Source: Phycisphaerae bacterium (lineage in GTDB: Bacteria > Planctomycetota > Phycisphaerae > UBA1845 > PWPN01). From it: a DNA stretch of 29,821 nucleotides. This document shows, in pieces, positions 2,510-28,731 of this stretch. The number at the start of each line of letters is the position of its first letter. Position 1 is the stretch's first letter. The notes under the pieces were generated by a model that saw nothing but the letters and a program-made list of their open reading frames with translations, ran no database searches and had not been told where the DNA came from. The stretch spans positions 10,726 to 40,546 of the forward strand of contig BTUC01000002.1 of NCBI GenBank assembly GCA_045863575.1. The letters run 5' to 3'. The position numbers and the translations under genes are program-made.

Positions 2510-4609
2510 ATGACATCATCTGGCAGCAGCAAGCAACAGAACGTCTGCCCGAGCCATACGCCTGGTAAGCGGCCGGCGCCGCGTCTCTGGAGTTGGTGGC
2601 TGATTCTTTTTTCGGGCCTGGCCGCACTGGTGTGGTTTCTGGTCCGGGTACTGCCCAAGCCCGCACGGGCCGCCTATCCCTGTCAGCGGGCGGCCGCCCC
2701 GCTGGCCGCCGGCTTCGTCCTGTGGCTGGGCAGCGGCATCGGCTCCGCGTGGGCCTATCGCCAGGCTGGCCGGCTGCTGAAGCAGTCCCGTGCCCGGCTG
2801 GCGTTCGGCTGCCTGAGCATCGCCGCCGTGCTGGCCGTGATTGCCATCCAGCACACCCCGACGCCGCCGGCCGCGGCGGCTCCTCCTGTGCCCAACCAGC
2901 CGATCGGACAAGCCCAGGGGCTGCACCCGGGGCGCGTGGTCTGGGCCCACGATCCAGACGCCACCGACTGGGCCGGGCCGGGTAACGGCCATTGGTGGGA
3001 GCCCGCCCACACGAGCCAGACGCGAGTCGACCAGATGCTCTCCCGCACCCTCCGTACGCTCGCCGGCCAAACGACCGATGCCGCCGCCTGGAATGCCCTC
3101 ATCCGCCACTTCAACCAGACCCGCCGGCAGATCGTCGCCGGCTACACGCCGGGAGAAAAAATTGCCATCAAGGTGAACCTCGTCGGCTGCATCCACGCCA
3201 ACGGCTGGGGCGGCGTCGACCCGAACACCTACAACCTGGTCAGCAAAGTGGACTACATGAACACTTCGCCCCAGGTCATGCTGGCCCTGCTGCGGCAACT
3301 GGTCACTGCCGCCGGTGTCAATCCGGCGGACATCTCCATCGGCGACCCCGTGTGCCTGTTTCCGAAGCAGTATTACGATCTTCTGCACCCCGAGTTCCCG
3401 CAGGTCCAGTACCTGGATTACCTTGGGGGCAACTCCGCCAATCCGCGTACCAAGGTTCTCCCCTCCGATGTCCGCTTCTACTGGAGCGCACGGCCGACCG
3501 GCAAAACGCCCGACTATATCCCCGCTCCGTACGCGCAAGCGACCTACTTCATCAACCTGGCCAACTTCAAATCGCACAGCAGCGCCGGCGTAACGCTGTG
3601 CGGAAAGAATTACTACGGCTTCCTGGCGCGAACGCCCGTCGAGAGCGGCTACTACGATATGCACCTGACCCTGCCCGAATTGGCCGGTGGCCCCGGCCAG
3701 TACCGCTGCATGGTAGATCTCATGGGCCACGCCCACAGCGGCGGCAAGGCCCTGCTCTACCTTGTCGACGGACTCTACTCGGGTGTACACCCGACGGAGG
3801 ATTCGCCGCGCAAATGGCTCAAGCCGCCATTCAACAACGACTGGACCTCGAGCCTGTTTGCCTCGCAGGACCCGGTGGCTATTGACTCCGTCGGCTTTGA
3901 CTTTCTCTACAACGAATGGATCCTCTATACGCACATGTCCGCCGCCGACGACTATCTCCACGAGGCCGCCCAGGCCGATAACCCCCCGTCGGGCAAGTTC
4001 TACGACCCCAACCACGCCACCGCCACGACACGACTGGCGAGCCTGGGCGTCCACGAACACTGGAACAACGCGACCGATCGCCAGTACAGCCGCAACCTGG
4101 GCACCGGCGAGGGAATCGAGTTTGTGGTGGCCGGGCGCCCCACCGCCATCATCGAGGCCACTCCGACTGCCGGCCGGGCGCCGCTGAGCGTGCAGTTCGA
4201 CGGTTCCGACTCGTACGATGTGGATGGTGCGATCACGGAGTGGTCCTGGGATTTCGAGAACGACGGCGTGCCCGATGAAATCGGGCAGACGATCACGCAC
4301 GTGTACGCGACCAGCGGGGATCACACCGCGGCTCTCAGCGTGACGGACAACGAGGGCAACACCGACACGCGCACAGTCCTGATCGCCATCGACCATCAGC
4401 CGGGAGACGGCGACAGCGACTATGACGTGGACCAGTCCGATTTCGGCAGGCTACAGGCGTGCATGACCACGGCATCCCAGAGCGTGTCAGACGCATGCCG
4501 GATTTTCGACTTGAACGGCGATGGCTTTGTCAACCAGCCGGATGTCACCATCTTCCGGGGGTGCATGAGCGGGCCCAACAGCGAAGGCGAGCGCGACTGC
4601 GCCGACTGA
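2510..4609 (+). CDS. membrane-anchored secreted protein: N-terminal 3-TM anchor, large unknown (possibly DUF362-like) domain, PKD domain, C-terminal dockerin-like module
   Basis: 699 aa. Three hydrophobic helices at the N-terminus, then a Pro/Ala linker. The central domain contains GEKIAIKVNLVGC and QDPVAIDSVGFDFL. A PKD-type domain (LSVQFDGSDS...WSWDFENDG...YATSGDHTAALSVTDNEGN) lies at about 4150-4390. The C-terminal 68 aa (4403-4606) are DGDSDYDVDQSDFGRLQACM...DLNGDGFVNQPDVTIFRGCMSGPN. Confidence 0.8.
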   Translation: MTSSGSSKQQNVCPSHTPGKRPAPRLWSWWLILFSGLAALVWFLVRVLPKPARAAYPCQRAAAPLAAGFVLWLGSGIGSAWAYRQAGRLLKQSRARLAFGCLSIAAVLAVIAIQHTPTPPAAAAPPVPNQPIGQAQGLHPGRVVWAHDPDATDWAGPGNGHWWEPAHTSQTRVDQMLSRTLRTLAGQTTDAAAWNALIRHFNQTRRQIVAGYTPGEKIAIKVNLVGCIHANGWGGVDPNTYNLVSKVDYMNTSPQVMLALLRQLVTAAGVNPADISIGDPVCLFPKQYYDLLHPEFPQVQYLDYLGGNSANPRTKVLPSDVRFYWSARPTGKTPDYIPAPYAQATYFINLANFKSHSSAGVTLCGKNYYGFLARTPVESGYYDMHLTLPELAGGPGQYRCMVDLMGHAHSGGKALLYLVDGLYSGVHPTEDSPRKWLKPPFNNDWTSSLFASQDPVAIDSVGFDFLYNEWILYTHMSAADDYLHEAAQADNPPSGKFYDPNHATATTRLASLGVHEHWNNATDRQYSRNLGTGEGIEFVVAGRPTAIIEATPTAGRAPLSVQFDGSDSYDVDGAITEWSWDFENDGVPDEIGQTITHVYATSGDHTAALSVTDNEGNTDTRTVLIAIDHQPGDGDSDYDVDQSDFGRLQACMTTASQSVSDACRIFDLNGDGFVNQPDVTIFRGCMSGPNSEGERDCAD

Positions 4610-7113: not shown

Positions 7114-8469
7114 ATGATGCTCCGCCGTCTGCCCTGCCTGTTGGGCGTTCTGCTCACAACGAGTCTGGCTTACGCCCAGGAAACGATCCAGGAACCTCCG
7201 GACGCGCCAGTACCGACCACCAAGCCGGCGGCCGCACCCTCTCCCTGGGAGCGCCAGTTTCTGACCGGCGACTGGGATGGAGCGCGCACCGAGTTGGCCG
7301 AAAAGGGCCTCACCTTCAACCTGAATATCACGCAAATCCTGCAAGGGAATGCCCACGGCGGGCACCGCACGCGCGACGGGATCAAGTACTCCGGCTCTGG
7401 CGATCTGACCATCACGGCCGACACCGGCAAGATGGACCTGTGGCCGGGCGGCCTGCTGCTGCTCAATGCCGAACCCAAGTGGGGCGACGGCGTCAACGAA
7501 ATGGTCGGTTCACTGCTGCCGGTGAACACCGATGCCGCCAGGCCTGGCCTCAACGAAGGCTGCGCCATGACGCTGTCCGAGTGGATCTACTTCCAGCACC
7601 TGCTGGAGAACAAGCTGATCCTCATCGCCGGCAAGCTGGACGGAGCCCGCGCGTTCGACCGTAACGTGTTCGCCAACGACGAGCGGACGCAGTTCATGAA
7701 CGCGGGGCTGCGCAACAACATGATCATCCCGGCGTTCCTGCCGTACACCAACCTGGGCGCGGGAGCCGTGGTGAACCCGACCGAGTGGCTGTCGATCATC
7801 ACGGCCGTGGCCGACACCGAGGGTCGGAACAAGACGACGGGATTCGAAACCACGTTCCACGGGCCGACAAACACGACGGTTATTCACGAGTGGTCTTTCA
7901 AGATCAAGCCCTTCGACCTGCCGGGTAACCAGCGCTTCGGCTTCGTCTGGAGTTCCATGGATTTCGAGCACCTCCAACCGCCGTCGCCCTTCAAGGAGAC
8001 CGGTCCCCTGATGATGTCGCTCCTGGGGCCGAACCTGGCCAACAAGGTCGTGCGCATGCTCACGAAGTTCGACACCAGCCCGGACAACGTGGGCCTCTAC
8101 TACAATTTCGACCAGTACCTCTACACGGAGGAAGGCTGTCCGGACCAGGGTGTGGGCCTCTTCGGCCGCTTCGGATGGGCACGCGGCGACGTGAATGCCC
8201 TGGAGTACTTCTACAGCATCGGCATGGGGGGCAAGGGTGTCCTGCCGGACCGCGACGAAGACACGTTCGGCATCGGCTACTTCCACGCGAATCTCAGCGA
8301 CGACCTGCCGTCGTTCCTCCAACAGGAAGCCGGCGTGGAGATGTACTACAACATCCAGATCTGCCCCTGGCTGCACATCTCGCCGGACGTGCAGGTCATC
8401 ATGGATCCGGGCGGATTCAGCAACGAGTGCTCGCTGGTCTACGGCATCCGCATGCAGTTGAACCTGTAA
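7114..8469 (+). CDS. carbohydrate-selective porin, OprB family (outer-membrane beta-barrel)
   Basis: 451 aa. Signal peptide MMLRRLPCLLGVLLTTSLAYAQE. The family-typical N-terminal motif LTGDWDGARTELAEKGLTFNL matches the OprB 'GDWGG.R..L...G' start. Alternating amphipathic beta-strand pattern throughout. GGAGA box 8 nt upstream of the ATG. Located directly downstream of the secreted GH. Confidence 0.65.
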   Translation: MMLRRLPCLLGVLLTTSLAYAQETIQEPPDAPVPTTKPAAAPSPWERQFLTGDWDGARTELAEKGLTFNLNITQILQGNAHGGHRTRDGIKYSGSGDLTITADTGKMDLWPGGLLLLNAEPKWGDGVNEMVGSLLPVNTDAARPGLNEGCAMTLSEWIYFQHLLENKLILIAGKLDGARAFDRNVFANDERTQFMNAGLRNNMIIPAFLPYTNLGAGAVVNPTEWLSIITAVADTEGRNKTTGFETTFHGPTNTTVIHEWSFKIKPFDLPGNQRFGFVWSSMDFEHLQPPSPFKETGPLMMSLLGPNLANKVVRMLTKFDTSPDNVGLYYNFDQYLYTEEGCPDQGVGLFGRFGWARGDVNALEYFYSIGMGGKGVLPDRDEDTFGIGYFHANLSDDLPSFLQQEAGVEMYYNIQICPWLHISPDVQVIMDPGGFSNECSLVYGIRMQLNL

Positions 8470-20526: not shown

Positions 20527-21750
20527 TTGCAGTTGATGGATACCTCATTGGCCGCGACCGGAATCGCAGAGCCGCTGGAACTCGGTGTACAGGCGGGACA
20601 TCCCCGGCACAACCGGCTGTTCCGAAGCTTCTTCCTTGGCGGATTTGAATGTTCCTGCCACTTCCGATACCAGGGGGGGCCCCGACTGGATGTGATCGCC
20701 GCCACGAACCACGACCAGTGGGCGCGGCAGGACTACGCCGCCTTACAGAGGTTCGGCATTCGCACCGTCCGGGACGGGATCCGCTGGCATCGCATCGAGA
20801 CGACGCCCGGGGAGTACAACTTCGCCTGCGATCTCCCGCTGGTGCGTGCCGCCCGCCAGACGGGAACTCAGGTCATCTGGGATCTCTGCCACTACGGGTG
20901 GCCCGACGACCTGGACCCGTTCACCGCTGAGTTCCCGCGCCGCTTGGCCGCCCTGAGCAAGGCTTTTGTCCGGCTCCTGCTGGAAGAAGGTGAAGAACAG
21001 CCATTCGTCGTACCCGTGAATGAGATTTCATTTCTCTCGTGGATTGGCGGGACGGAAGGCAAATTCCCGCCGTTCGCCACGCACCGCGGCGATGAACTCA
21101 AGCGAGCGCTGGTACGGGCCACCATTGAGACCATTGAGGCCGTCCGGGAAGTCGCTCCTCAGGCCCGCTTCTGCCTGGTCGACCCCATGATCAATGTGGT
21201 GGGTCATCAAGACAATCCGGAGGACTGCCGACAGGCCGAAGAATACCGCCTGGCCCAGTACGCTGCCTGGGACATGATTGCCGGACGAGCGGCACCCGAA
21301 CTGGGCGGCAAACCTGAGTACCTGGACATCATTGGCGTCAACTACTATGTACACAACCAGTGGCTGCACGCGGGCCATGGCGAGTTTGTGCGAATGCTCA
21401 AGCCGTCAGACGCCGGGTACCGACCCGTTTCCAACCTGCTGGCTGAGGTCCACGAGCGCTACCAGCGGCCTATTTTCATTGCCGAAACAGGAATAGAAGG
21501 CCGCCACCGGGCCCCGTGGCTCCGGAGCATCTGTCGTGAAGCGGGCAAGGCACTCACGGCCGGCGTCCCCCTCGAAGGGATCTGTCTTTATCCGGTGGTG
21601 GATTACCCGGGATGGGCAGATGATCGCCACTGCCCCGTCGGCCTTCTGGGCTACGCGGGACGGGGTGGCCGTCGCCCGGTCTATCGGCCATTGGCAGCGG
21701 AGATGAAGCGCCAGCAGGCGCACTTCTGCGCCTTAATGGGGGGCTGCTGA
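20527..21750 (+). CDS. glycoside hydrolase family 1-like (clan GH-A beta-glycosidase-like) protein, short form
   Basis: 407 aa, TTG start 9 nt after an AGAAGGAG SD. GH1-like N-terminus FFLGGFECSCHFRYQGG...DYAALQRFGIRTVRDGIRWHRIETTPGEYNF (compare GH1 'RfSIsWsRI.P.G.G..N'). NE in VPVNEISFL (acid/base) and IAETGIEG (nucleophile; compare ITENG). Confidence 0.75.
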   Translation: MQLMDTSLAATGIAEPLELGVQAGHPRHNRLFRSFFLGGFECSCHFRYQGGPRLDVIAATNHDQWARQDYAALQRFGIRTVRDGIRWHRIETTPGEYNFACDLPLVRAARQTGTQVIWDLCHYGWPDDLDPFTAEFPRRLAALSKAFVRLLLEEGEEQPFVVPVNEISFLSWIGGTEGKFPPFATHRGDELKRALVRATIETIEAVREVAPQARFCLVDPMINVVGHQDNPEDCRQAEEYRLAQYAAWDMIAGRAAPELGGKPEYLDIIGVNYYVHNQWLHAGHGEFVRMLKPSDAGYRPVSNLLAEVHERYQRPIFIAETGIEGRHRAPWLRSICREAGKALTAGVPLEGICLYPVVDYPGWADDRHCPVGLLGYAGRGGRRPVYRPLAAEMKRQQAHFCALMGGC

Positions 21751-21933: not shown

Positions 21934-23811
21934 ATGACGCGGACGGTCGGCTACCCACGCCCGCAGCTCGAGCGCGTCGGATGGATCTGCCTCAACGGAC
22001 CCTGGGATTTCGCTCTCGACCCGGGGGCGCGCTGGAATCTGCCCGATCAGGTGCCTTGGAATGGTACGCAGATCATCGTGCCGTTCTCTCCGGAGACCCA
22101 GGCCAGCGGCGTAAGCGAACCTGGCTTCTACCGCGCCTGCTGGTACCGCCGAACCTTCAGCGCGCCCCGGATGGCGGATGGCAAGCGGCTGCTTCTGCAT
22201 TTCGGAGCGGTGGATTACCAGGCCACCGTCTGGGTGAATGGCCGCCTGGCCGTCCGGCACATGGGAGGCTATACGCCGTTCCATGCCGATATCACCGACC
22301 TGCTGCACGAATCCGGGCCACAGGTCATCGAGGTGCTCGCGGAAGACGACCCTGCGGATCTGGCCAAACCGCGCGGTAAGCAGGATTGGCAACTGCACCC
22401 GCATTCTATCTGGTACCCGCGAACGACAGGCATCTGGCAGACCGTCTGGCTGGAGGTCGTGCCGGCCGTGTGGATTGAACAAGTGCGTTGGACGCCCAAT
22501 GTCGAGCGCTGGGAGCTGGCTCTCGATGTAGTCATCCAGGGTGAGCTGCGCAATGACATGCGCCTCAACGTGCGGTTGGAGGCCAACGATACCCTGTTGG
22601 CGGATGACGTTTACACCGTGGTGGCCGGCGAGGTGCACCGCAAGATTGTCTTCTCTGACCCCGGCATCGACGATTATCGCAACGAGCTGCTGTGGAGTCC
22701 CATTCGACCCACGCTGATTCAGGCCCAGTTGGAGCTGCTCACGCCAGAGGGCGAAGCCGCAGACGTGGTTTTGAGCTACACGGCCATGCGCTCGATCGGT
22801 ATCCAGGGCAATCGGCTGGTGCTCAATGGTCGTCCCATCTCCCTCCGGCTGGTTCTGGACCAGGGGTACTGGCCCGAAACGGGAATCACCGCCCCCAGCG
22901 ACGATGCGTTACGCAAAGACGTTGAACTGGCCAAGAACATGGGCTTCAACGGTGTGCGCAAGCACCAGAAGATCGAGGATCCCCGATATCTGTACTGGGC
23001 AGACCGGCTGGGGCTTTTAGTCTGGGAGGAGATGCCCAGCGCCTACCGGTTCACGCGTCGCTCGATCGAACGGCTGATGGTCGAGTGGACCGAGGCCATC
23101 AAGCGGGACAGCAGCCATCCCTGTATCATCGCCTGGGTGCCGCTCAACGAGTCCTGGGGCGTGCCCGATCTGCCCGACAGCCCCACGCAGCGTCACTACG
23201 TGCAGGCCCTGTATCATCTCACCAAGACGCTCGATCCAACCCGCCCGGTGGTTGGCAACGACGGCTGGGAGAGCGTGGCCACGGACATCATTGGCATTCA
23301 CGACTATGATGAGAACCCCGAGACCATCCGGGAGCGTTACGGAAGCGAAGATCAGACGCTGTCCAGGCTGGCGGAGCGCGAACGGCCGGGCGGGCGGCTG
23401 CTGGTTCTGGACACCAACCTCCAGGGGCTTTTGCCCATCATCCTGACGGAGTTCGGCGGCATTGCCTGCTCGCCCGACCGCGAGCGCACCTGGGGTTATT
23501 CACTGGCCAAGGACAGCGAACAGTTCGCCGAGCAGTACAGCCGGCTGCTGGAAGCCGTGCGGTCCATCCCCATGCTGGCCGGTTTCTGCTACACGCAATT
23601 TGCCGACACCTACCAGGAGGCGAACGGACTGCTGTACGCCGACCGCACGCCGAAGTTCCCCATGCGGCGCATGAGGTTGGCCACCGCCGGCCCCAAGGGT
23701 GAACGCGAGCAGCAGGTGGAAACGAAGTGGCGCGATCGACTCATGCAGGTTCAACTGTTCCACTACTCCATTCCCTCCGAGGACCACCGCAGTCAGCAGG
23801 ACCGCGGGTGA
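21934..23811 (+). CDS. glycoside hydrolase family 2 (beta-galactosidase/beta-mannosidase/beta-glucuronidase-like; possibly beta-galactofuranosidase)
   Basis: N-terminal sugar-binding domain (YPRPQLER...ICLNGPWDFALDP). A TIM barrel with WVPLNESWG (acid/base) and IILTEFGG (nucleophile). No signal peptide. Start ambiguous: ATG at 21934 or TTG at 21835 in the track. The 270-aa minus-strand overlap is rejected as antisense. Confidence 0.85.
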   Translation: MTRTVGYPRPQLERVGWICLNGPWDFALDPGARWNLPDQVPWNGTQIIVPFSPETQASGVSEPGFYRACWYRRTFSAPRMADGKRLLLHFGAVDYQATVWVNGRLAVRHMGGYTPFHADITDLLHESGPQVIEVLAEDDPADLAKPRGKQDWQLHPHSIWYPRTTGIWQTVWLEVVPAVWIEQVRWTPNVERWELALDVVIQGELRNDMRLNVRLEANDTLLADDVYTVVAGEVHRKIVFSDPGIDDYRNELLWSPIRPTLIQAQLELLTPEGEAADVVLSYTAMRSIGIQGNRLVLNGRPISLRLVLDQGYWPETGITAPSDDALRKDVELAKNMGFNGVRKHQKIEDPRYLYWADRLGLLVWEEMPSAYRFTRRSIERLMVEWTEAIKRDSSHPCIIAWVPLNESWGVPDLPDSPTQRHYVQALYHLTKTLDPTRPVVGNDGWESVATDIIGIHDYDENPETIRERYGSEDQTLSRLAERERPGGRLLVLDTNLQGLLPIILTEFGGIACSPDRERTWGYSLAKDSEQFAEQYSRLLEAVRSIPMLAGFCYTQFADTYQEANGLLYADRTPKFPMRRMRLATAGPKGEREQQVETKWRDRLMQVQLFHYSIPSEDHRSQQDRG

Positions 23812-23925
23812 CCAGCGATCCGCCCTCACCAGGGCCCTGCTGCCGCACTCCCGCGGCAGGTGCTTAATCGTTTCAAGCCGATTTAATCTCTAATTAGAAG
23901 CATTAATGCCCACACCCTTCCCGGC

Positions 23926-23954
23926 TTGACATTCGGGCGGGACGGGGCTTACAT
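23926..23954 (+). promoter_or_regulatory. candidate sigma70-type promoter TTGACA-N17-TTACAT in the AT-rich GH2/GT intergenic region
   Basis: TTGACAttcgggcgggacggggcTTACAT, seen directly, about 390 nt upstream of the GT-UGM ATG and next to an AT-rich stretch (cttaatcgtttcaagccgatttaatctctaattagaagcattaatg). Confidence 0.3.
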
Positions 23955-24345
23955 CTACCGAGGCGCACGAAGTGAATCGCACCTGCTTTCCAGACGCACG
24001 AGGCGGATGACGGCGAGACTCGGGATGCACGTCTGCATGCATCCTGACGAAGTGTTCCGCCCTCCGGAGCATGGCGCGATGAGCGTCACGCGGAAGAAAC
24101 TATCCGTCTGCAGGACTGACCAGCTTCAGCCGGGCCGAGTACGCCGGTTGCATGGGTTCCACGCGTCGCCGACCTGCGGATCACCGCGTTCACATGCCTC
24201 CTCCGGCCCTCGGCCGGTCGCCACGGTTTTTTGAAAGCAACCCGCCTCCGGTGCTGCCGCCCGCGCCCCGGGGAAGCTACGAACTGCGCGCCGCGAGGCG
24301 CCGGCAGAAAACATGGGTCTGCGGACCATAAACGGGAGGATATCC

Positions 24346-27213
24346 ATGAAAGATTCGTTGCCCATAATCGTATTCTCTCATCTGCGGTGGGACTGGGTCT
24401 ATCAGCGCCCCCAGCATCTGATCTCGCGGTTGGCGGCCGGACGCCGTGTCTTCTTTGTCGAGGAACCCCAGCATGAACCAGGCGGCGAAGCGCGATGGAA
24501 CTTCTCCGAACCCGAACCGAACGTCCTCGTCTGCCGGCCTCTCACCCCCGTGGCGGCGCCGGGATTCGCTGATGAGCAGATGCCGGCCCTGCACTGCCTT
24601 TTGAGAGAATTGCGCGAGCGCGCCCATCTCGACGAATACGTCGTGTGGTTCTATACCCCCATGGCCCTTCCCCTGCTCGCGGGGCTCAAGCCGGCCGGCG
24701 TGGTGTACGACTGCATGGATGAGCTTTCGGCGTTCCGTGGCGCGCCGCCCGCACTGCTCGAGCGGGAAGCCGCCCTCTATCATGCGGCAGATGTCGTGTT
24801 CACCGGCGGGCCGAGCCTCTACAAGGCGAAACGCAGCCGCCACCACAACGTGCACTGCTTCCCCAGCAGCGTGGATGCCGCCCATTTTGGGAAGGCCCGC
24901 GGGCTGGCGCAGGAGCCCAAGGACCAGGCGGCGCTGGCCGGTCCGCGCCTGGGCTTCTTCGGCGTCATCGATGAGCGGCTGGACCTTCAGCTTCTGGATG
25001 CCATGGCCAGAGCCCACCCGGACTGGCAGATCTGCATGGTTGGCCCGGTGATCAAGATCGATCCGGGAGTGCTGCCGCGGCACACCAACATCCACTACTT
25101 CGGTCAGCGGCCCTACGAAGCCCTGCCCGGTTATCTGAAGGGTTGGGACGTCTGCCTGCTGCCGTTCGCGCGCAACGAAGCGACTCGGTTTATCAGCCCC
25201 ACGAAGACACTGGAGTACATGGCCGCGGAGAAGCCGATCGTCAGCACGCCGATTACCGACGTGGCCGAGCCCTACGGCCACATCGTCCGCCTGGGTGACG
25301 ACGCGGCCACGTTCATCGCAGCCTGCGAACAGGCGCTCAGCGCCACGCCGGAAGACCGCGCCGCACGAACGGCCGAAATGCGCAAAGTGCTGGCCAGAAC
25401 GTCCTGGGATACGACCGCCCGGGCCATGGCCGATCAGATCGAGGCGGTCGTGGCGGCCCGGCGGACTCTCAGCGCCTCATCCGCCCGGCAGCCCGCCGCC
25501 TCCTCAGACGAATCCGCAGGGCGCGTGGTCGTGGTCGGCGCCGGCCCGACCGGCTTGAGCGCCGCCTACCACCTGGGCTCCGACGCCCTGCTGCTCGAAC
25601 GCAACGAGCGCGTCGGCGGCTGGTGCCGGTCCATTGAGGATGGGGGCTTCACCTTCGATTACGCCGGCCACATCATGTTCTCCAACGACCCCTACGTGCA
25701 CGAACTCTACGAGAAGCTCCTGGGAGACAACGTCCACTGGCAGAACCGCGAGGCCTGGATCTTCAGCAAGGGCGTCTACACACGCTACCCGTTCCAGGGC
25801 GCCCTCTACGGTCTTCCACCTGAGGTGATCAAGGAGTGTATTGTCGGCGCAATTGAGGCACGCTTCGGCCCGATCAGGAAGAAAGCCTCCTCCGGCAATT
25901 CGACCGCTTCCGGCAACGGCAACGGCCGGGAGGCATCCTTGAAGATCGAAGCGCAGGGGGCGACCCCGCCCGCGGGCAACGGCAAAGTCAACGGCAACAA
26001 CGGCCATGCCCCAGGCTCTGCACGAACGACCAATGGCCACTCCAGGCCGCTCGCGGAGACACGCTCAGTTGCCTCCAGCTGCGCGGCTGGTGACGCCAAG
26101 GACTGCTGCGCGGACGGGCTCATGGAGAGTACGGCCCGCCTGGGCAGACCACAGAACACCAACGGCAATGGGAACGGGAACGGGTCGGATGCTTCCGGTG
26201 AGCCTCGAAACTTCGAGGAGTTCATCTATAGGGTGTGGGGCGCGGGCATCGCGAAGCACTTCGCGATTCCCTACAACCGCAAGCTGTGGGCCGTGCCGCT
26301 GACCGAGATGGAAACGTCCTGGCTGGGCGGGCGGGTTCCTCTGCCGGATCTGGAGGAGATGATCGACGGAGCCCTCAAGCCCGTCCCCGCCCCCATGGGT
26401 CCCAACGCGCGGTTCGGCTATCCGCTGCGCGGCGGATTCCAGGCACTCATGAACGGCTTCCTGCCGCACGTGCAGGACCGCCTGCGGCTGAACACAGCGG
26501 TCAAGAGTGTATCGCCCCGTCGCAAGACCATTACCACGCGAGATGGCGAGGAGATCCGCTACGAGTACCTGATCAGCACCATGCCTCTGCCGGTGCTGAT
26601 CGGGAGCATGGGTGACGAGGTGCCCGCATCCGTCCGGCAGGCGGCCGCCGGCTTGCGCTACGTCTCGGTTCGCTGCGTCAACATTGCCGTGGGCCGCGAG
26701 AACCTCACCGAGAAGCATTGGATCTACTACCCCGAGGACACGGTATTCCACCGCATCTTTGTGCAGGGCAATGCCAGTCCTCACTGCAACCGGCCCGGGG
26801 GCTTCGGCTTCACCTGTGAGATCACCTACTCACCGCACAAGCCGCTGCCCTGTGATGGTCAGGACCTGATCCAGCGTTGCATCGACGATTGCCGGCGCGT
26901 CGGCTTCATCCGGGAGGATGACCCCGTCTGGTGCGCGAACCAGGTGGACATGCCGCACGCGTATGTCGTCTACGACCACGGCCGATCGCGGAACGTGAAG
27001 CAGATCCGGGACTGGCTGGAAGAGCAGGACATCCTGCTGGCCGGCCGTTACAGCGAGTGGGAATACTACAACTCAGACCACGCCTTCATCGCCGGCAAGA
27101 AAGCGGCCGACAAGGTCCGGGAGCTCATGGCCGAGAGGTCGAATCGAAGCACTCGCGCCGCGGGGACGAGTCGAGTTCTGTCGGGCAAGGCCACCGCCGG
27201 CACGGGCGTCTGA
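24346..27213 (+). CDS. bifunctional fusion: GT-B glycosyltransferase (GT1/GT4-like) + eukaryotic-type UDP-galactopyranose mutase (UGM/Glf) with N/G-rich loop insertion
   Basis: ATG at 24346 sits 6 nt after GGGAGGA (track start 24313 is probably 11 codons too early). N-terminal 390 aa: IIVFSHLRWDWVYQRPQHLISRLA...EYMAAEKPIVSTP (GT-B E-x7-E). C-terminal about 560 aa align along their whole length with fungal/kinetoplastid UGM, from my recollection of the family, not a search: VVVGAGPTGLSAA, AGHIMFS, YPFQGA, NFEEFIYRVWGAGIAKHFAIPYNRKLWAVPLTEMETSWLGGRVPLPDLE, KHWIYYPED, GRYSEWEYYNSDHAF. An about 115-aa N/G/S-rich insertion (25880-26215; SGNSTASGNGNG...NTNGNGNGNGSD) lies between the ALEAR and FEEF motifs. 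Confidence 0.85.
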   Translation: MKDSLPIIVFSHLRWDWVYQRPQHLISRLAAGRRVFFVEEPQHEPGGEARWNFSEPEPNVLVCRPLTPVAAPGFADEQMPALHCLLRELRERAHLDEYVVWFYTPMALPLLAGLKPAGVVYDCMDELSAFRGAPPALLEREAALYHAADVVFTGGPSLYKAKRSRHHNVHCFPSSVDAAHFGKARGLAQEPKDQAALAGPRLGFFGVIDERLDLQLLDAMARAHPDWQICMVGPVIKIDPGVLPRHTNIHYFGQRPYEALPGYLKGWDVCLLPFARNEATRFISPTKTLEYMAAEKPIVSTPITDVAEPYGHIVRLGDDAATFIAACEQALSATPEDRAARTAEMRKVLARTSWDTTARAMADQIEAVVAARRTLSASSARQPAASSDESAGRVVVVGAGPTGLSAAYHLGSDALLLERNERVGGWCRSIEDGGFTFDYAGHIMFSNDPYVHELYEKLLGDNVHWQNREAWIFSKGVYTRYPFQGALYGLPPEVIKECIVGAIEARFGPIRKKASSGNSTASGNGNGREASLKIEAQGATPPAGNGKVNGNNGHAPGSARTTNGHSRPLAETRSVASSCAAGDAKDCCADGLMESTARLGRPQNTNGNGNGNGSDASGEPRNFEEFIYRVWGAGIAKHFAIPYNRKLWAVPLTEMETSWLGGRVPLPDLEEMIDGALKPVPAPMGPNARFGYPLRGGFQALMNGFLPHVQDRLRLNTAVKSVSPRRKTITTRDGEEIRYEYLISTMPLPVLIGSMGDEVPASVRQAAAGLRYVSVRCVNIAVGRENLTEKHWIYYPEDTVFHRIFVQGNASPHCNRPGGFGFTCEITYSPHKPLPCDGQDLIQRCIDDCRRVGFIREDDPVWCANQVDMPHAYVVYDHGRSRNVKQIRDWLEEQDILLAGRYSEWEYYNSDHAFIAGKKAADKVRELMAERSNRSTRAAGTSRVLSGKATAGTGV

Positions 27214-27878: not shown

Positions 27879-28731
27879 CTATCGCCCGAAACAGGATAGC
27901 CTAGCGCCGGGTGTTCCGTAAGCCTGGGTCTTGGTGGTAAGCAGGCAGGTGGTCTCCTGGTAGACCCCCCAGGTCACATCGGCCGTGCCGGGCTCGGCGG
28001 GCCAGGTATCCGCGTTCCACGAGCTGCCACCCTGGAACGTGTGCATTTTCCGTCCGCCGTCCGTACGCGTCGTAATCATAACTGGGTAGCCGTACGTGGT
28101 CGTGGCTGGCCGAGTCCTGTTCGTAGTCGATGGCCCCCTTGGGAACGGCCGTGCGGTACGCCGTCGTGGTGGTCAGCCCGCGGGCGTCGGTCACGCCGGT
28201 CCGCCGGCCCAGTGGATCGTAGGCGTACCGGAACAGCAGCCAGCCAGTCTTGGCGTGATGTGTTTGCAGCAGGCCGTTGCGCGTGACCAGCACCTCATTG
28301 TAGTTCGCGTCCCAGTGATTGACGCTCCGGGTCACCCGCTTGTCGGCCAGGAGCAACGTCTCGGTGGTGATGTTCACGTTGCCGTGAGCATCCTGGACGC
28401 GCGTCTCACCGATCGTGCCTGCCGGGAAGTTGGTCAGCCGCCGTCGCTGGTAAGACGTCGGCGCCGTCCCGCTGTCGTCGGCGTGGACCTGGCTCGAAGT
28501 GGTCAGCCACCAGTCGCTGCCGATCTTCTCGTAAGCGGTTGAGGATGCAGTGATACGGTCGGCCGAGGCGGCGGTCAGATCGCCATCCGGCAGTTGATGG
28601 CCGTAAGGACGAGCCGGGAGGCGCGGGCCACAAGTGGCCCTCGGACCGCCACCGGCAGGGCTACGGCCGGCACGGCGACCTGACCGCGAGGAACTCTTAA
28701 GTGGTGGCGAGAGAGGCCGCGGCCGGGGATC
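27879..28731 (-). pseudogene. Rhs/YD-repeat protein fragment (internal core repeats only; no start codon, frameshifted near 28079)
   Basis: The minus-strand frame is open from the stop at 28732-34 down to 27901 (hand-translated): ...ADRITASSTAYEKIGSDWWLTTSSQVHADDSGTAPTSYQRRRLTNFPAGTIGETRVQDAHGNVNITTETLLLADKRVTRSVNHWDANYNEVLVTRNGLLQTHHAKTGWLLFRYAYDPLGRRTGVTDARGLTTTTAYRTAVPKGAIDYEQDSASHDHVRLPSYDYDAYGRRTEN... shows the YxYDxxGR YD-repeat periodicity. The N-terminal 60 aa are R/P-rich with no ATG. A second frame (27879..28079) continues after a +1 shift. There is no Rhs N-terminal domain, no DPxGL core end and no toxin tip. Confidence 0.5.

Follow-up and report, generated by a model that had tools for sequence, protein, structure and literature searches.

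A glycosyltransferase fused to a eukaryote-like UDP-galactopyranose mutase, predicted to be bifunctional, in a conserved bacterial gene cassette

Introduction

Galactofuranose (Galf) is not found in mammals, and in fungi, trypanosomatids, and mycobacteria the pathway that makes it serves as a target for drugs and diagnostics. UDP-galactopyranose mutase (UGM) interconverts UDP-galactopyranose (UDP-Galp) and UDP-Galf, and its equilibrium favours the pyranose. The closest described mutases are the eukaryotic UGMs (Aspergillus fumigatus UgmA, 3ute and 3ukh; Trypanosoma cruzi UGM, 4dsg) and the classical bacterial Glf (PF03275, TIGR00031). To our knowledge, all characterised galactofuranosyltransferases (GT2 GlfT1/2, GT31 GfsA, GT40 LPG1, and GT111) have a GT-A-type or other fold and none of them is GT-B. 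Here we describe a gene of a Phycisphaerae bacterium that encodes a GT-B glycosyltransferase (GT) fused to a UGM of eukaryote-like type. The gene lies in a stretch of 29,821 nucleotides (contig BTUC01000002.1 of GCA_045863575.1, positions 10,726 to 40,546), and "the window" below means this whole stretch. We put the probability at about 0.7 that the fusion protein is a bifunctional UGM and galactofuranosyltransferase that works in a conserved cassette with hydrolases.

Both domain families are already known, and databases contain the fusion under generic names. What is new is the occurrence of a eukaryote-like UGM in bacteria as part of a defined and widespread cassette, a predicted galactofuranosyltransferase of the GT-B fold, recurrent independent fusions with two unrelated mutases, and an invariant Cys-Cys motif on a tether.

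Gene and protein architecture

The list of open reading frames (ORFs) showed a frame on the forward strand that is open from 24313 to 27213 without interruption. An ATG in the same frame at 24313 is unlikely to be the start codon of the fusion gene. We searched 5.8 billion proteins and obtained more than 7,000 matches, of which the best 120 form the homologue set used below. All of these are full-length (871-1021 aa) and have 61-68% identity to the fusion protein, except for one relative (P0001) with 95% identity over 100% of the length. Since the N-termini of the 120 homologues fit a start at 24346 (MKDSLPIIVFSHLRW...), the product has 955 aa. The features of the gene are as follows.

24346..27213, + strand: coding sequence of the GT-UGM fusion, stop codon included, 955 aa (ORF list; N-terminus fits the consensus of the 120 homologues)
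24346..25479, + strand: GT-B glycosyltransferase domain, GT4-like, aa 1-378, with N-terminal HLRWDWVYQRPQHL; the domain ends at 25479
25510..25863, + strand: UGM part 1, aa 389-506, with GAGPTGL (Rossmann motif for flavin adenine dinucleotide, FAD), the His loop AGH, the uridine-binding YPFQ, and helix alpha3
25864..26190, + strand: insertion of about 110 aa, aa 507-615, a disordered tether rich in Asn, Gly, Ala, and Ser (alignment gap and model confidence)
26080..26142, + strand: conserved core motif within the insertion, aa 579-599, CAAGDAKDCCADGLMESTARL in this protein (codons read from the DNA)
26191..27210, + strand: UGM part 2, aa 616-955 (phmmer alignment; Foldseek template modelling (TM) score 0.76-0.84)

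A preliminary description of this DNA had proposed a single polypeptide made of a glycosyltransferase and a UGM, and the one uninterrupted ORF of 955 aa bears this out. The motifs that it quoted (HLRWDWVYQRPQHL, GAGPTGL, YPFQ, FEEFIYRVWGAGIAKHFAIPYNRKLWAVPLTEMETSWLGGRV, WIYYPED, and GRYSEWEY) were all found. Pfam matched Glyco_trans_1_4 and Glyco_trans_1_2 at aa 200-362 and NAD_binding_8 and Amino_oxidase at aa 396-924. NCBIfam gave sub-threshold matches only, to TuaH in the N-terminal half and to the PRK07208 'hypothetical protein' models in the C-terminal half. The AlphaFold2 model built from the 120 homologues had a mean predicted local distance difference test (pLDDT) value of 83. Sequence, fold, active-site residues, and comparative genomics all uphold the two-domain reading.

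The mutase domain

When the protein was compared by phmmer with all PDB sequences, the A. fumigatus and T. cruzi UGMs were the sole strong matches (E values 4e-52 to 9e-51). The next PDB family was protoporphyrinogen oxidase (3.5e-4), and its match was confined to the dinucleotide-binding motif; protoporphyrinogen oxidase, L-amino-acid oxidase, and LSD1 matched the first 50-100 residues only, at 3e-4 or weaker. The Foldseek search with the AlphaFold2 model gave the same picture. The domain has the three-domain flavoenzyme fold of the eukaryotic UGMs (A. fumigatus and T. cruzi, including 3ukh and 4dsg; TM score 0.76-0.84, E values of about 1e-32 to 3e-35), with only about 24% identity in the alignments, and protoporphyrinogen oxidase reached about 1e-19.

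To check the active site, the phmmer alignment, in which UGM part 1 aligns to residues 12-132 of chain 3ute, was compared with the residue roles given for A. fumigatus UGM (AfUGM) in PMC3322874. In AfUGM numbering, 15 of the 16 active-site residues examined are kept, namely H63, F66, Y104, Q107, N163, W167, R182, N207, W315, Y317, R327, Y419, R447, Y453, and N457, of which those from N163 onwards lie in UGM part 2. The GxGxxG Rossmann motif is in place as GAGPTGL. The uridine pocket (Y104, Q107, N163, and W167) is intact, with exact alignment of YPFQ and PYNRKLW. WLGGRV, FHRIF, HAYVVY, and EWEYY align at the positions of the two essential arginines (R182, on mobile loop I, and R327) and of the diphosphate tyrosines (Y419 and Y453). 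N207, W315, and N457 were singled out as different in prokaryotic UGMs, where the equivalent of N207 is Phe, that of N457 is Asp in most enzymes, and that of Q458 is Met (PMC3322874). Of the residues that distinguish the eukaryotic enzymes, the fusion protein keeps the His of AGH, N207 (GPNARF), W315 (HWIYYPED), and N457 (YYNSDH), and Q458, which is Ser, is the one exception.

The C-terminal half might instead be a generic oxidoreductase of the amine-oxidase/protoporphyrinogen-oxidase type, with a fusion unrelated to furanose chemistry. Pfam does assign it to Amino_oxidase (PF01593, a match at superfamily level with 72 bits) and NAD_binding_8 (3.9e-15), and NCBI calls its homologues 'FAD-dependent oxidoreductase'. 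The preliminary description had regarded such an assignment as fatal to its UGM reading if the UGM-specific motifs were lacking; the assignment is there, but so are the motifs. A UGM is not refuted by it, since the residues specific to UGM are in place and the solved eukaryotic UGMs match best by far. UGM matches surpass those of protoporphyrinogen oxidase by about 48 orders of magnitude in sequence and about 15 in fold, the substrate-binding residues are conserved, and a classical Glf takes the place of this domain beside the orthologous transferase in other bacteria. A generic oxidase is therefore extremely improbable, and we rejected it on the PDB sequence and Foldseek comparisons.

The C-terminal domain is therefore, from the PDB matches, the fold, and the conserved residues, a UGM of the eukaryote-like structural type. 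It is not the short bacterial Glf, as the preliminary description had also held: PF03275 did not match the fusion protein at E values up to 0.1, and TIGR00031 scored 23.9 bits against a cutoff of 303.75, in the Rossmann part only. Thus, the Foldseek and HMMER checks that had been proposed came out with eukaryotic UGMs best by far, no PF03275 match, and a match to the GT group 1 profile. 'Eukaryotic-type' denotes resemblance only, because the nearest relatives outside the fusion family are bacterial and the Insert 1 hairpin of the fungal enzyme is absent. These relatives, found in a search of 1.84 billion representative proteins, are stand-alone bacterial proteins of about 430 aa with 35-40% identity (255-310 bits). 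At the site of Insert 1, aa 817-823 of the fusion protein span residues 343-374 of chain 3ute. The fungal inserts (Insert 1, 340-366, and the C-terminal extension, 474-510) are specific to AfUGM and do not define the activity. Compared with the eukaryotic UGMs, the domain also differs in being bacterial, in its fusion to a GT, and in the 110-aa insertion with a tethered motif at the end of alpha3.

Two more distant GT-UGM-like fusions, P0128 (858 aa) and P0149 (906 aa), have 43-50% identity and lack the WLGGRV arginine, the Y453/N457 region, and the DCC motif of the insertion described below. Their mutase domains may be catalytically dead or repurposed paralogues. A eukaryote-like UGM domain was also found inside giant multidomain proteins, P0216 (6521 aa; residues 5025-5338) and P0154 (1551 aa).

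Pairing of the transferase with two unrelated mutases

GT-domain orthologues with 45-64% identity were paired with a UGM of either type in every case seen. Many of these modules also contain U400, a GH1-like glycosidase that is encoded upstream of the fusion gene in the window, and an ATP-binding cassette (ABC) exporter. The modules that we compared are listed here.

Pseudomonas sp. D1-3: transferase (49% identity, E value 5e-118), classical Glf (PF03275), U400, and MsbA-like ABC exporter
Azospirillum brasilense Sp7, plasmid p3: 767-aa transferase-classical-Glf fusion, then U400 (55%), then the orthologous exporter (67%)
Sinorhizobium meliloti, pSymA: 744-aa transferase-Glf fusion, 1079-aa glycosyltransferase, and 759-aa GT4-annotated protein with a C-terminal U400-like domain
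Deinococcus: transferase and glf
Pantoea agglomerans, plasmid p33.1_1 (L087:7849-11604): single protein of 1251 aa, U400-transferase-eukaryote-like UGM

Fusions of the transferase with a classical Glf were found in Azospirillum, S. meliloti, Sphingobium, and Rhizobium. The classical-Glf modules share with our locus the predicted reaction and an HLRW-type transferase partner, adjoining or fused, and they often include U400 and the orthologous ABC exporter. They differ in the mutase and in lacking the DCC insertion. BLASTP of the fusion protein against the Pseudomonas Glf gave an E value of 0.21, which is not significant. Because the two mutase types have no significant similarity, the pattern is one of non-orthologous displacement around a constant transferase, and the fusions with the two mutases are independent. 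This displacement is the strongest available argument for three points: UGM activity of the C-terminal half, use of its product by the transferase, and membership of U400 in the same machine. The coupling to Galf transfer, which the preliminary description had only presumed, thus gains strong support from genomic context, namely the obligatory pairing with a UGM, the neighbouring hydrolase of a furanosidase group, and galK/galT.

The triple fusion seen in P. agglomerans was also present in P0122 (1281 aa) and P0124 (1260 aa), and it is located on megaplasmids of Pantoea and related Enterobacterales. In Pseudomonas sp. D1-3 (L085:1-5312), the GT-Glf-U400-ABC module lies just downstream of genes of carotenoid type (Amino_oxidase/CrtI-like, SQS_PSY, and FA_hydroxylase) and of a gene for an NAD-dependent epimerase. 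This neighbourhood may be a coincidence, or it may hint at a lipid or terpenoid acceptor.

The transferase domain

The N-terminal half matched Pfam Glyco_trans_1_4 above the gathering score, and the AlphaFold2 model and the fold search gave a GT-B fold of two Rossmann domains. The GT-B transferase claimed for this half is borne out by both the group 1 profile and the modelled fold. Comparisons of the GT domain with the PDB found no relative by sequence (best E value 0.87, an enoyl-CoA hydratase) or by profile (best 0.1, a potassium channel), and the fold search alone gave informative relatives. Its structural neighbours include sucrose synthase and trehalose synthase/phosphorylase-type enzymes, and the inverting enzyme GumK was an equally good one. 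The identity to GT4 enzymes (sucrose-phosphate synthase 6kih, BshA, PimA, and the PimB'-type 3okc) is 11-19%. The domain is also distinct from Bacillus subtilis TuaH, since the TuaH equivalog model NF047676 (teichuronic acid biosynthesis) gave 78.8 bits against a cutoff of 550.

A Gly-rich N-terminal loop is typical of GT4. In the GT domain, HLRWDxVxQRPQHL replaces the loop of the GT4 retaining enzymes, and the canonical EX7E motif was not seen. When the alignment was read by eye, E290 was invariant and the upstream acidic residue was variable and spaced x11, not x7. The GT4-like fold is normally retaining and thus alpha-forming, and it is a mismatch with the hydrolase partner of the beta-Galf type described below.

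Distribution of the fusion

The preliminary description suggested a survey of Planctomycetes and Verrucomicrobia for the fusion. In the genomes searched here it is common rather than unusual, as at least 588 species-representative genomes encode a relative. In this genome set, the 80 best loci are near-full-length with 59-66% identity. Their hosts are Acidobacteriota, Planctomycetota (Gemmataceae, Phycisphaerae, Pirellulales, Isosphaera, and Schlesneria), Chloroflexia, Gemmatimonadales, Gammaproteobacteria (Methylocaldum, Methylobacter, Nevskia, and Steroidobacter), Gallionella, and Rhodospirillales. In eight loci from Gemmatimonadales and Chloroflexia, the GT and UGM halves are separate adjoining genes. 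Homologues are often named 'UDP-galactopyranose mutase' by JGI, in contrast to the oxidoreductase name used by NCBI. The literature search found no characterisation of this fusion or of the rhizobial and Azospirillum GT-Glf genes.

The cassette and the predicted function

In the window, U400, a GH2 glycoside hydrolase gene, and the fusion gene follow each other in this order on one strand.

20527..21750, + strand: U400, GH1-like TIM-barrel glycosidase of the clan GH-A type, 407 aa (weak GH1 matches)
about 21934..23811, + strand: GH2 hydrolase of group III, closest to GH2_19 (furanosidase group), predicted to be cytoplasmic (PDB matches)

U400 keeps the NE and ETG motifs that are expected of a retaining glycosidase of the clan GH-A type. 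The GH2 protein has intact NE acid/base and TEFGG nucleophile motifs, and no signal peptide was visible by eye. Its best PDB match was 7xyr, an uncharacterised GH2_19 member (2e-98), and it also matched the beta-D-galactofuranosidase 9j6n (5.6e-71). GH2_18 and GH2_19 are the sole GH2 group active on furanosides (beta-D-Galf and alpha-L-Araf), and about 90% of GH2_19 are non-secreted (PMC12243196).

Synteny was counted in 48 loci with complete 8-kb flanks. A GH2 orthologue (58-75% identity) adjoins the fusion gene in 31 of them, U400 in 36, both in 28, and either in 39. Clustering of the ORFs of 85 loci gave GH2, U400, galK, and galT as the only conserved genes, with no priming transferase, flippase, polymerase, or uptake system. 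galT and galK adjoin the fusion and GH2 genes in Methylocaldum, Methylobacter, Gallionella, and Steroidobacterales. An orthologue of the ABC exporter adjoins the module in Pseudomonas, Azospirillum, and Methylocaldum (62% identity in the Methylocaldum cassette). It is of the MsbA-like exporter type with fused transmembrane and ATPase domains. NCBIfam gave it no specific substrate class (MsbA-like, generic), and glucan-exporter models were not the best matches.

The architecture recalls cyclic beta-1,2-glucan synthase (Cgs), in which a polymerising transferase is joined to glycoside-hydrolase-like domains and served by a dedicated MsbA-like exporter (NdvA/ChvA). The likeness is one of architecture only. 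The domains of the cassette are not homologous to those of Cgs, the sugar is different, and there is no sign of a polymer, of cyclisation, or of protein priming.

From the domain identities, the conserved active site, the cassette, and the fusion patterns, we infer mutase activity, UDP-Galf as the donor, a biosynthetic direction, and roles for the hydrolases. The protein has no apparent signal peptide and would be soluble and bifunctional. Its C-terminal flavoprotein domain, with reduced FAD, would contract the ring of UDP-alpha-D-Galp to give UDP-alpha-D-Galf, and the N-terminal GT4-like GT-B domain would use UDP-Galf to galactofuranosylate an acceptor. Since UDP-Galf is the thermodynamically disfavoured isomer, the fusion would channel it into transfer. 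The most likely task of U400 and GH2 is to process the Galf-containing product, to set its size, or to turn it over. For Proteobacteria, we would expect galK and galT to recycle released galactose and the MsbA-like exporter to remove the product from the cytoplasm.

The two glycosidases with intact catalytic residues and the accompanying galK/galT would also suit a catabolic or salvage route. Here the GT-B domain would run in reverse, as in the GT4 enzyme sucrose synthase, to convert a Galf-glycoside and UDP into UDP-Galf, which the fused mutase would draw towards the favoured UDP-Galp and so into the Leloir pathway, and GH2 and U400 would hydrolyse imported Galf-oligosaccharides. The pyranose-favouring equilibrium of UGM fits such a direction, and so does the presence of sucrose synthase and trehalose synthase/phosphorylase-type enzymes among the structural neighbours. 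However, the ABC protein is an exporter and no uptake system is conserved. The cassette also occurs in methanotrophs and an iron-oxidising autotroph (Methylocaldum, Methylobacter, and Gallionella), which are not expected to feed on Galf-glycans, and Pantoea and S. meliloti have U400 joined to glycosyltransferases, as would suit a biosynthetic machine. For these reasons biosynthesis is favoured, and we consider the catabolic route quite unlikely.

A bifunctional enzyme of Galf biosynthesis thus remains our preferred reading, and some observations weigh against it. AfUGM Y334, which belongs to a hydrophobic pocket, is Ala in the fusion protein and Q458 is Ser, in addition to the missing Insert 1 hairpin. 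The predicted TM score (pTM) of the AlphaFold2 model is just 0.58, and the arrangement of the two domains, and hence physical channelling, is therefore not established. No acceptor-defining or membrane gene is conserved in the cassettes of Planctomycetota and Acidobacteriota, and the literature search found no biochemical data for any family member.

The two substitutions lie near the flavin/His-loop pocket and might point to another nucleotide sugar. The mutase would then convert UDP-L-arabinopyranose to UDP-L-arabinofuranose, or act on an N-acetylated or 6-deoxy analogue, and the GT would install that furanose. GH2 group III includes alpha-L-arabinofuranosidases besides beta-D-galactofuranosidases, which agrees with this idea. 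On the other hand, galK and galT adjoin the gene in several genomes, the transferase is elsewhere paired with proteins that bear the Pfam GLF domain or are annotated as glf, and the galactose-contacting residues R182, N207, W315, R327, and N457 are all kept. A substrate other than UDP-Galp is thus very unlikely.

If the Galf reading is true, the 'eukaryotic' type of UGM is widespread in bacteria, which bears on the origin of the eukaryotic enzyme. The transferase would represent a new fold class (GT-B) of galactofuranosyltransferases with a built-in supply of its unstable donor, and it would be useful for the chemo-enzymatic synthesis of Galf-glycans from cheap UDP-Gal. A Galf-containing product would be made in abundant soil and water phyla (Acidobacteriota, Planctomycetota, Gemmatimonadota, Chloroflexota, and methanotrophs), as well as in the genetically tractable P. 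agglomerans, A. brasilense Sp7, and S. meliloti.

The insertion and its DCC motif

In the phmmer alignment, aa 507-615 stand for about five AfUGM residues, in a gap between 132 and 138 of chain 3ute. Helix alpha3, at whose C-terminal end the insertion sits, belongs to the alpha-helical domain that shapes the active-site entrance. The region corresponds to AfUGM alpha3 (113-134) and the loop 135-141, and it is mobile loop 1 in prokaryotic UGMs. The model had pLDDT values below 50 at aa 516-617 (102 residues) and of about 30 for the insertion, which predicts disorder. An insertion was found in all 120 homologues, with a length of 41-187 aa (median 64). NG dipeptides occur at 10 per 100 aa in it and at 0.18 elsewhere in the homologues, a 57-fold excess. 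The preliminary description had reported a low-complexity insertion of 115 aa in a UGM loop. The insertion is real, but its size is about 110 aa. It is indeed disordered and rich in Asn and Gly, yet it holds an invariant motif.

This motif has the consensus C-x6-D-C-C-[AG]-D-G-[ILV]-[LM]-E-[SA]-[TS]-A-x-L. None of the 120 homologues departs from the residues D, C, C, D, and G, and 104 of them have the first Cys. Among 84 loci, DCC[AG]DG was present in 79 and missing only from Gemmatimonadales. It spans at least five phyla amid insertion sequence that is otherwise unalignable. The five Gemmatimonadales proteins that lack it (L037, L057, L058, L061, and L067) carry another conserved motif, DDYTGPERRGMFEPLMK, at the same loop position, and the loop appears to be a slot for lineage-specific short motifs.

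The insertion could be functionally neutral, a low-complexity linker produced by replication slippage. Its hypervariable length and sequence, the predicted disorder, and small hexamer arrays are consistent with this, and the classical-Glf modules and the Gemmatimonadales proteins work without the DCC motif. The AACGGC/AATGGG hexamers in the DNA do exist, in three arrays of 2.7-4 copies, but they are trivial, with Tandem Repeats Finder scores of 32-34 (default threshold 50). The 95%-identical homologue has an insertion of unchanged length; the length differs between species, and not among the close relatives seen. Slippage at short evolutionary range is therefore unsupported, and we rejected the idea that the repeats are slippage-prone. 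Neutrality is at odds with the invariance of DCC[AG]DG across phyla inside unalignable sequence, with the alternative motif of the Gemmatimonadales at the same site, and with an Asn-Gly bias that persists across lineages. We consider a neutral insertion unlikely.

As part of the predicted Galf enzyme, the insertion would be a flexible tether that extends from the alpha-helical domain gating the mutase active site and presents D-C-C-[A/G]-D-G. Since the insertion is disordered, the AlphaFold2 model gives the motif no position. No cysteine was lost together with DCC in the five Gemmatimonadales proteins, where C427, C498, C777, C814, C824, and C845 persist, and this co-loss comparison identified no partner cysteine for a metal site or a disulphide. 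The motif may serve as a dithiol for redox chemistry or regulation, as a docking motif, or as a site for priming. An invariant Cys-Cys on a disordered tether is an unexplained trait of a flavoenzyme that must stay reduced to work.

The motif may be imagined as a functional 'swinging arm'. It could act as a redox relay of vicinal dithiols by which the reduced flavin that UGM needs is maintained or sensed, comparable to the mobile CC/CU tails of thioredoxin and mercuric reductases. Another version would make it the site of covalent self-priming from which the chain starts, as in glycogenin and cyclic-glucan synthase. Such an arm, together with an unrecognised multi-phylum pathway for Galf-glycans or glycosides and the first galactofuranosyltransferase of the GT-B fold, would make up the most far-reaching view of the locus, which we offer as a speculative and rather doubtful one.

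Other features of the window

Rfam at gathering thresholds gave no match anywhere in the window, and a promoter/terminator scan gave signals at background level only. This includes the gap of about 530 bp between the GH2 and fusion genes (23812-24345), which has no Rfam family and no promoter or terminator signal above background. In the majority of Acidobacteriota loci, about 200-350 bp separate the fusion gene from the end of the gene upstream of it, which is usually U400.

The window also encodes a DUF362 protein with PKD and dockerin-like modules (2510-4609, +) and an OprB-family carbohydrate-selective porin (7114-8469, +). Both are carbohydrate-related surface functions, and neither gene is conserved beside the cassette elsewhere. 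Directly downstream of the fusion gene there is an ORF of 158 aa (27901-28377, -) with a match to the RHS repeat (PF05593, 1.2e-06), which looks like a fragment of an Rhs/YD-repeat toxin gene.

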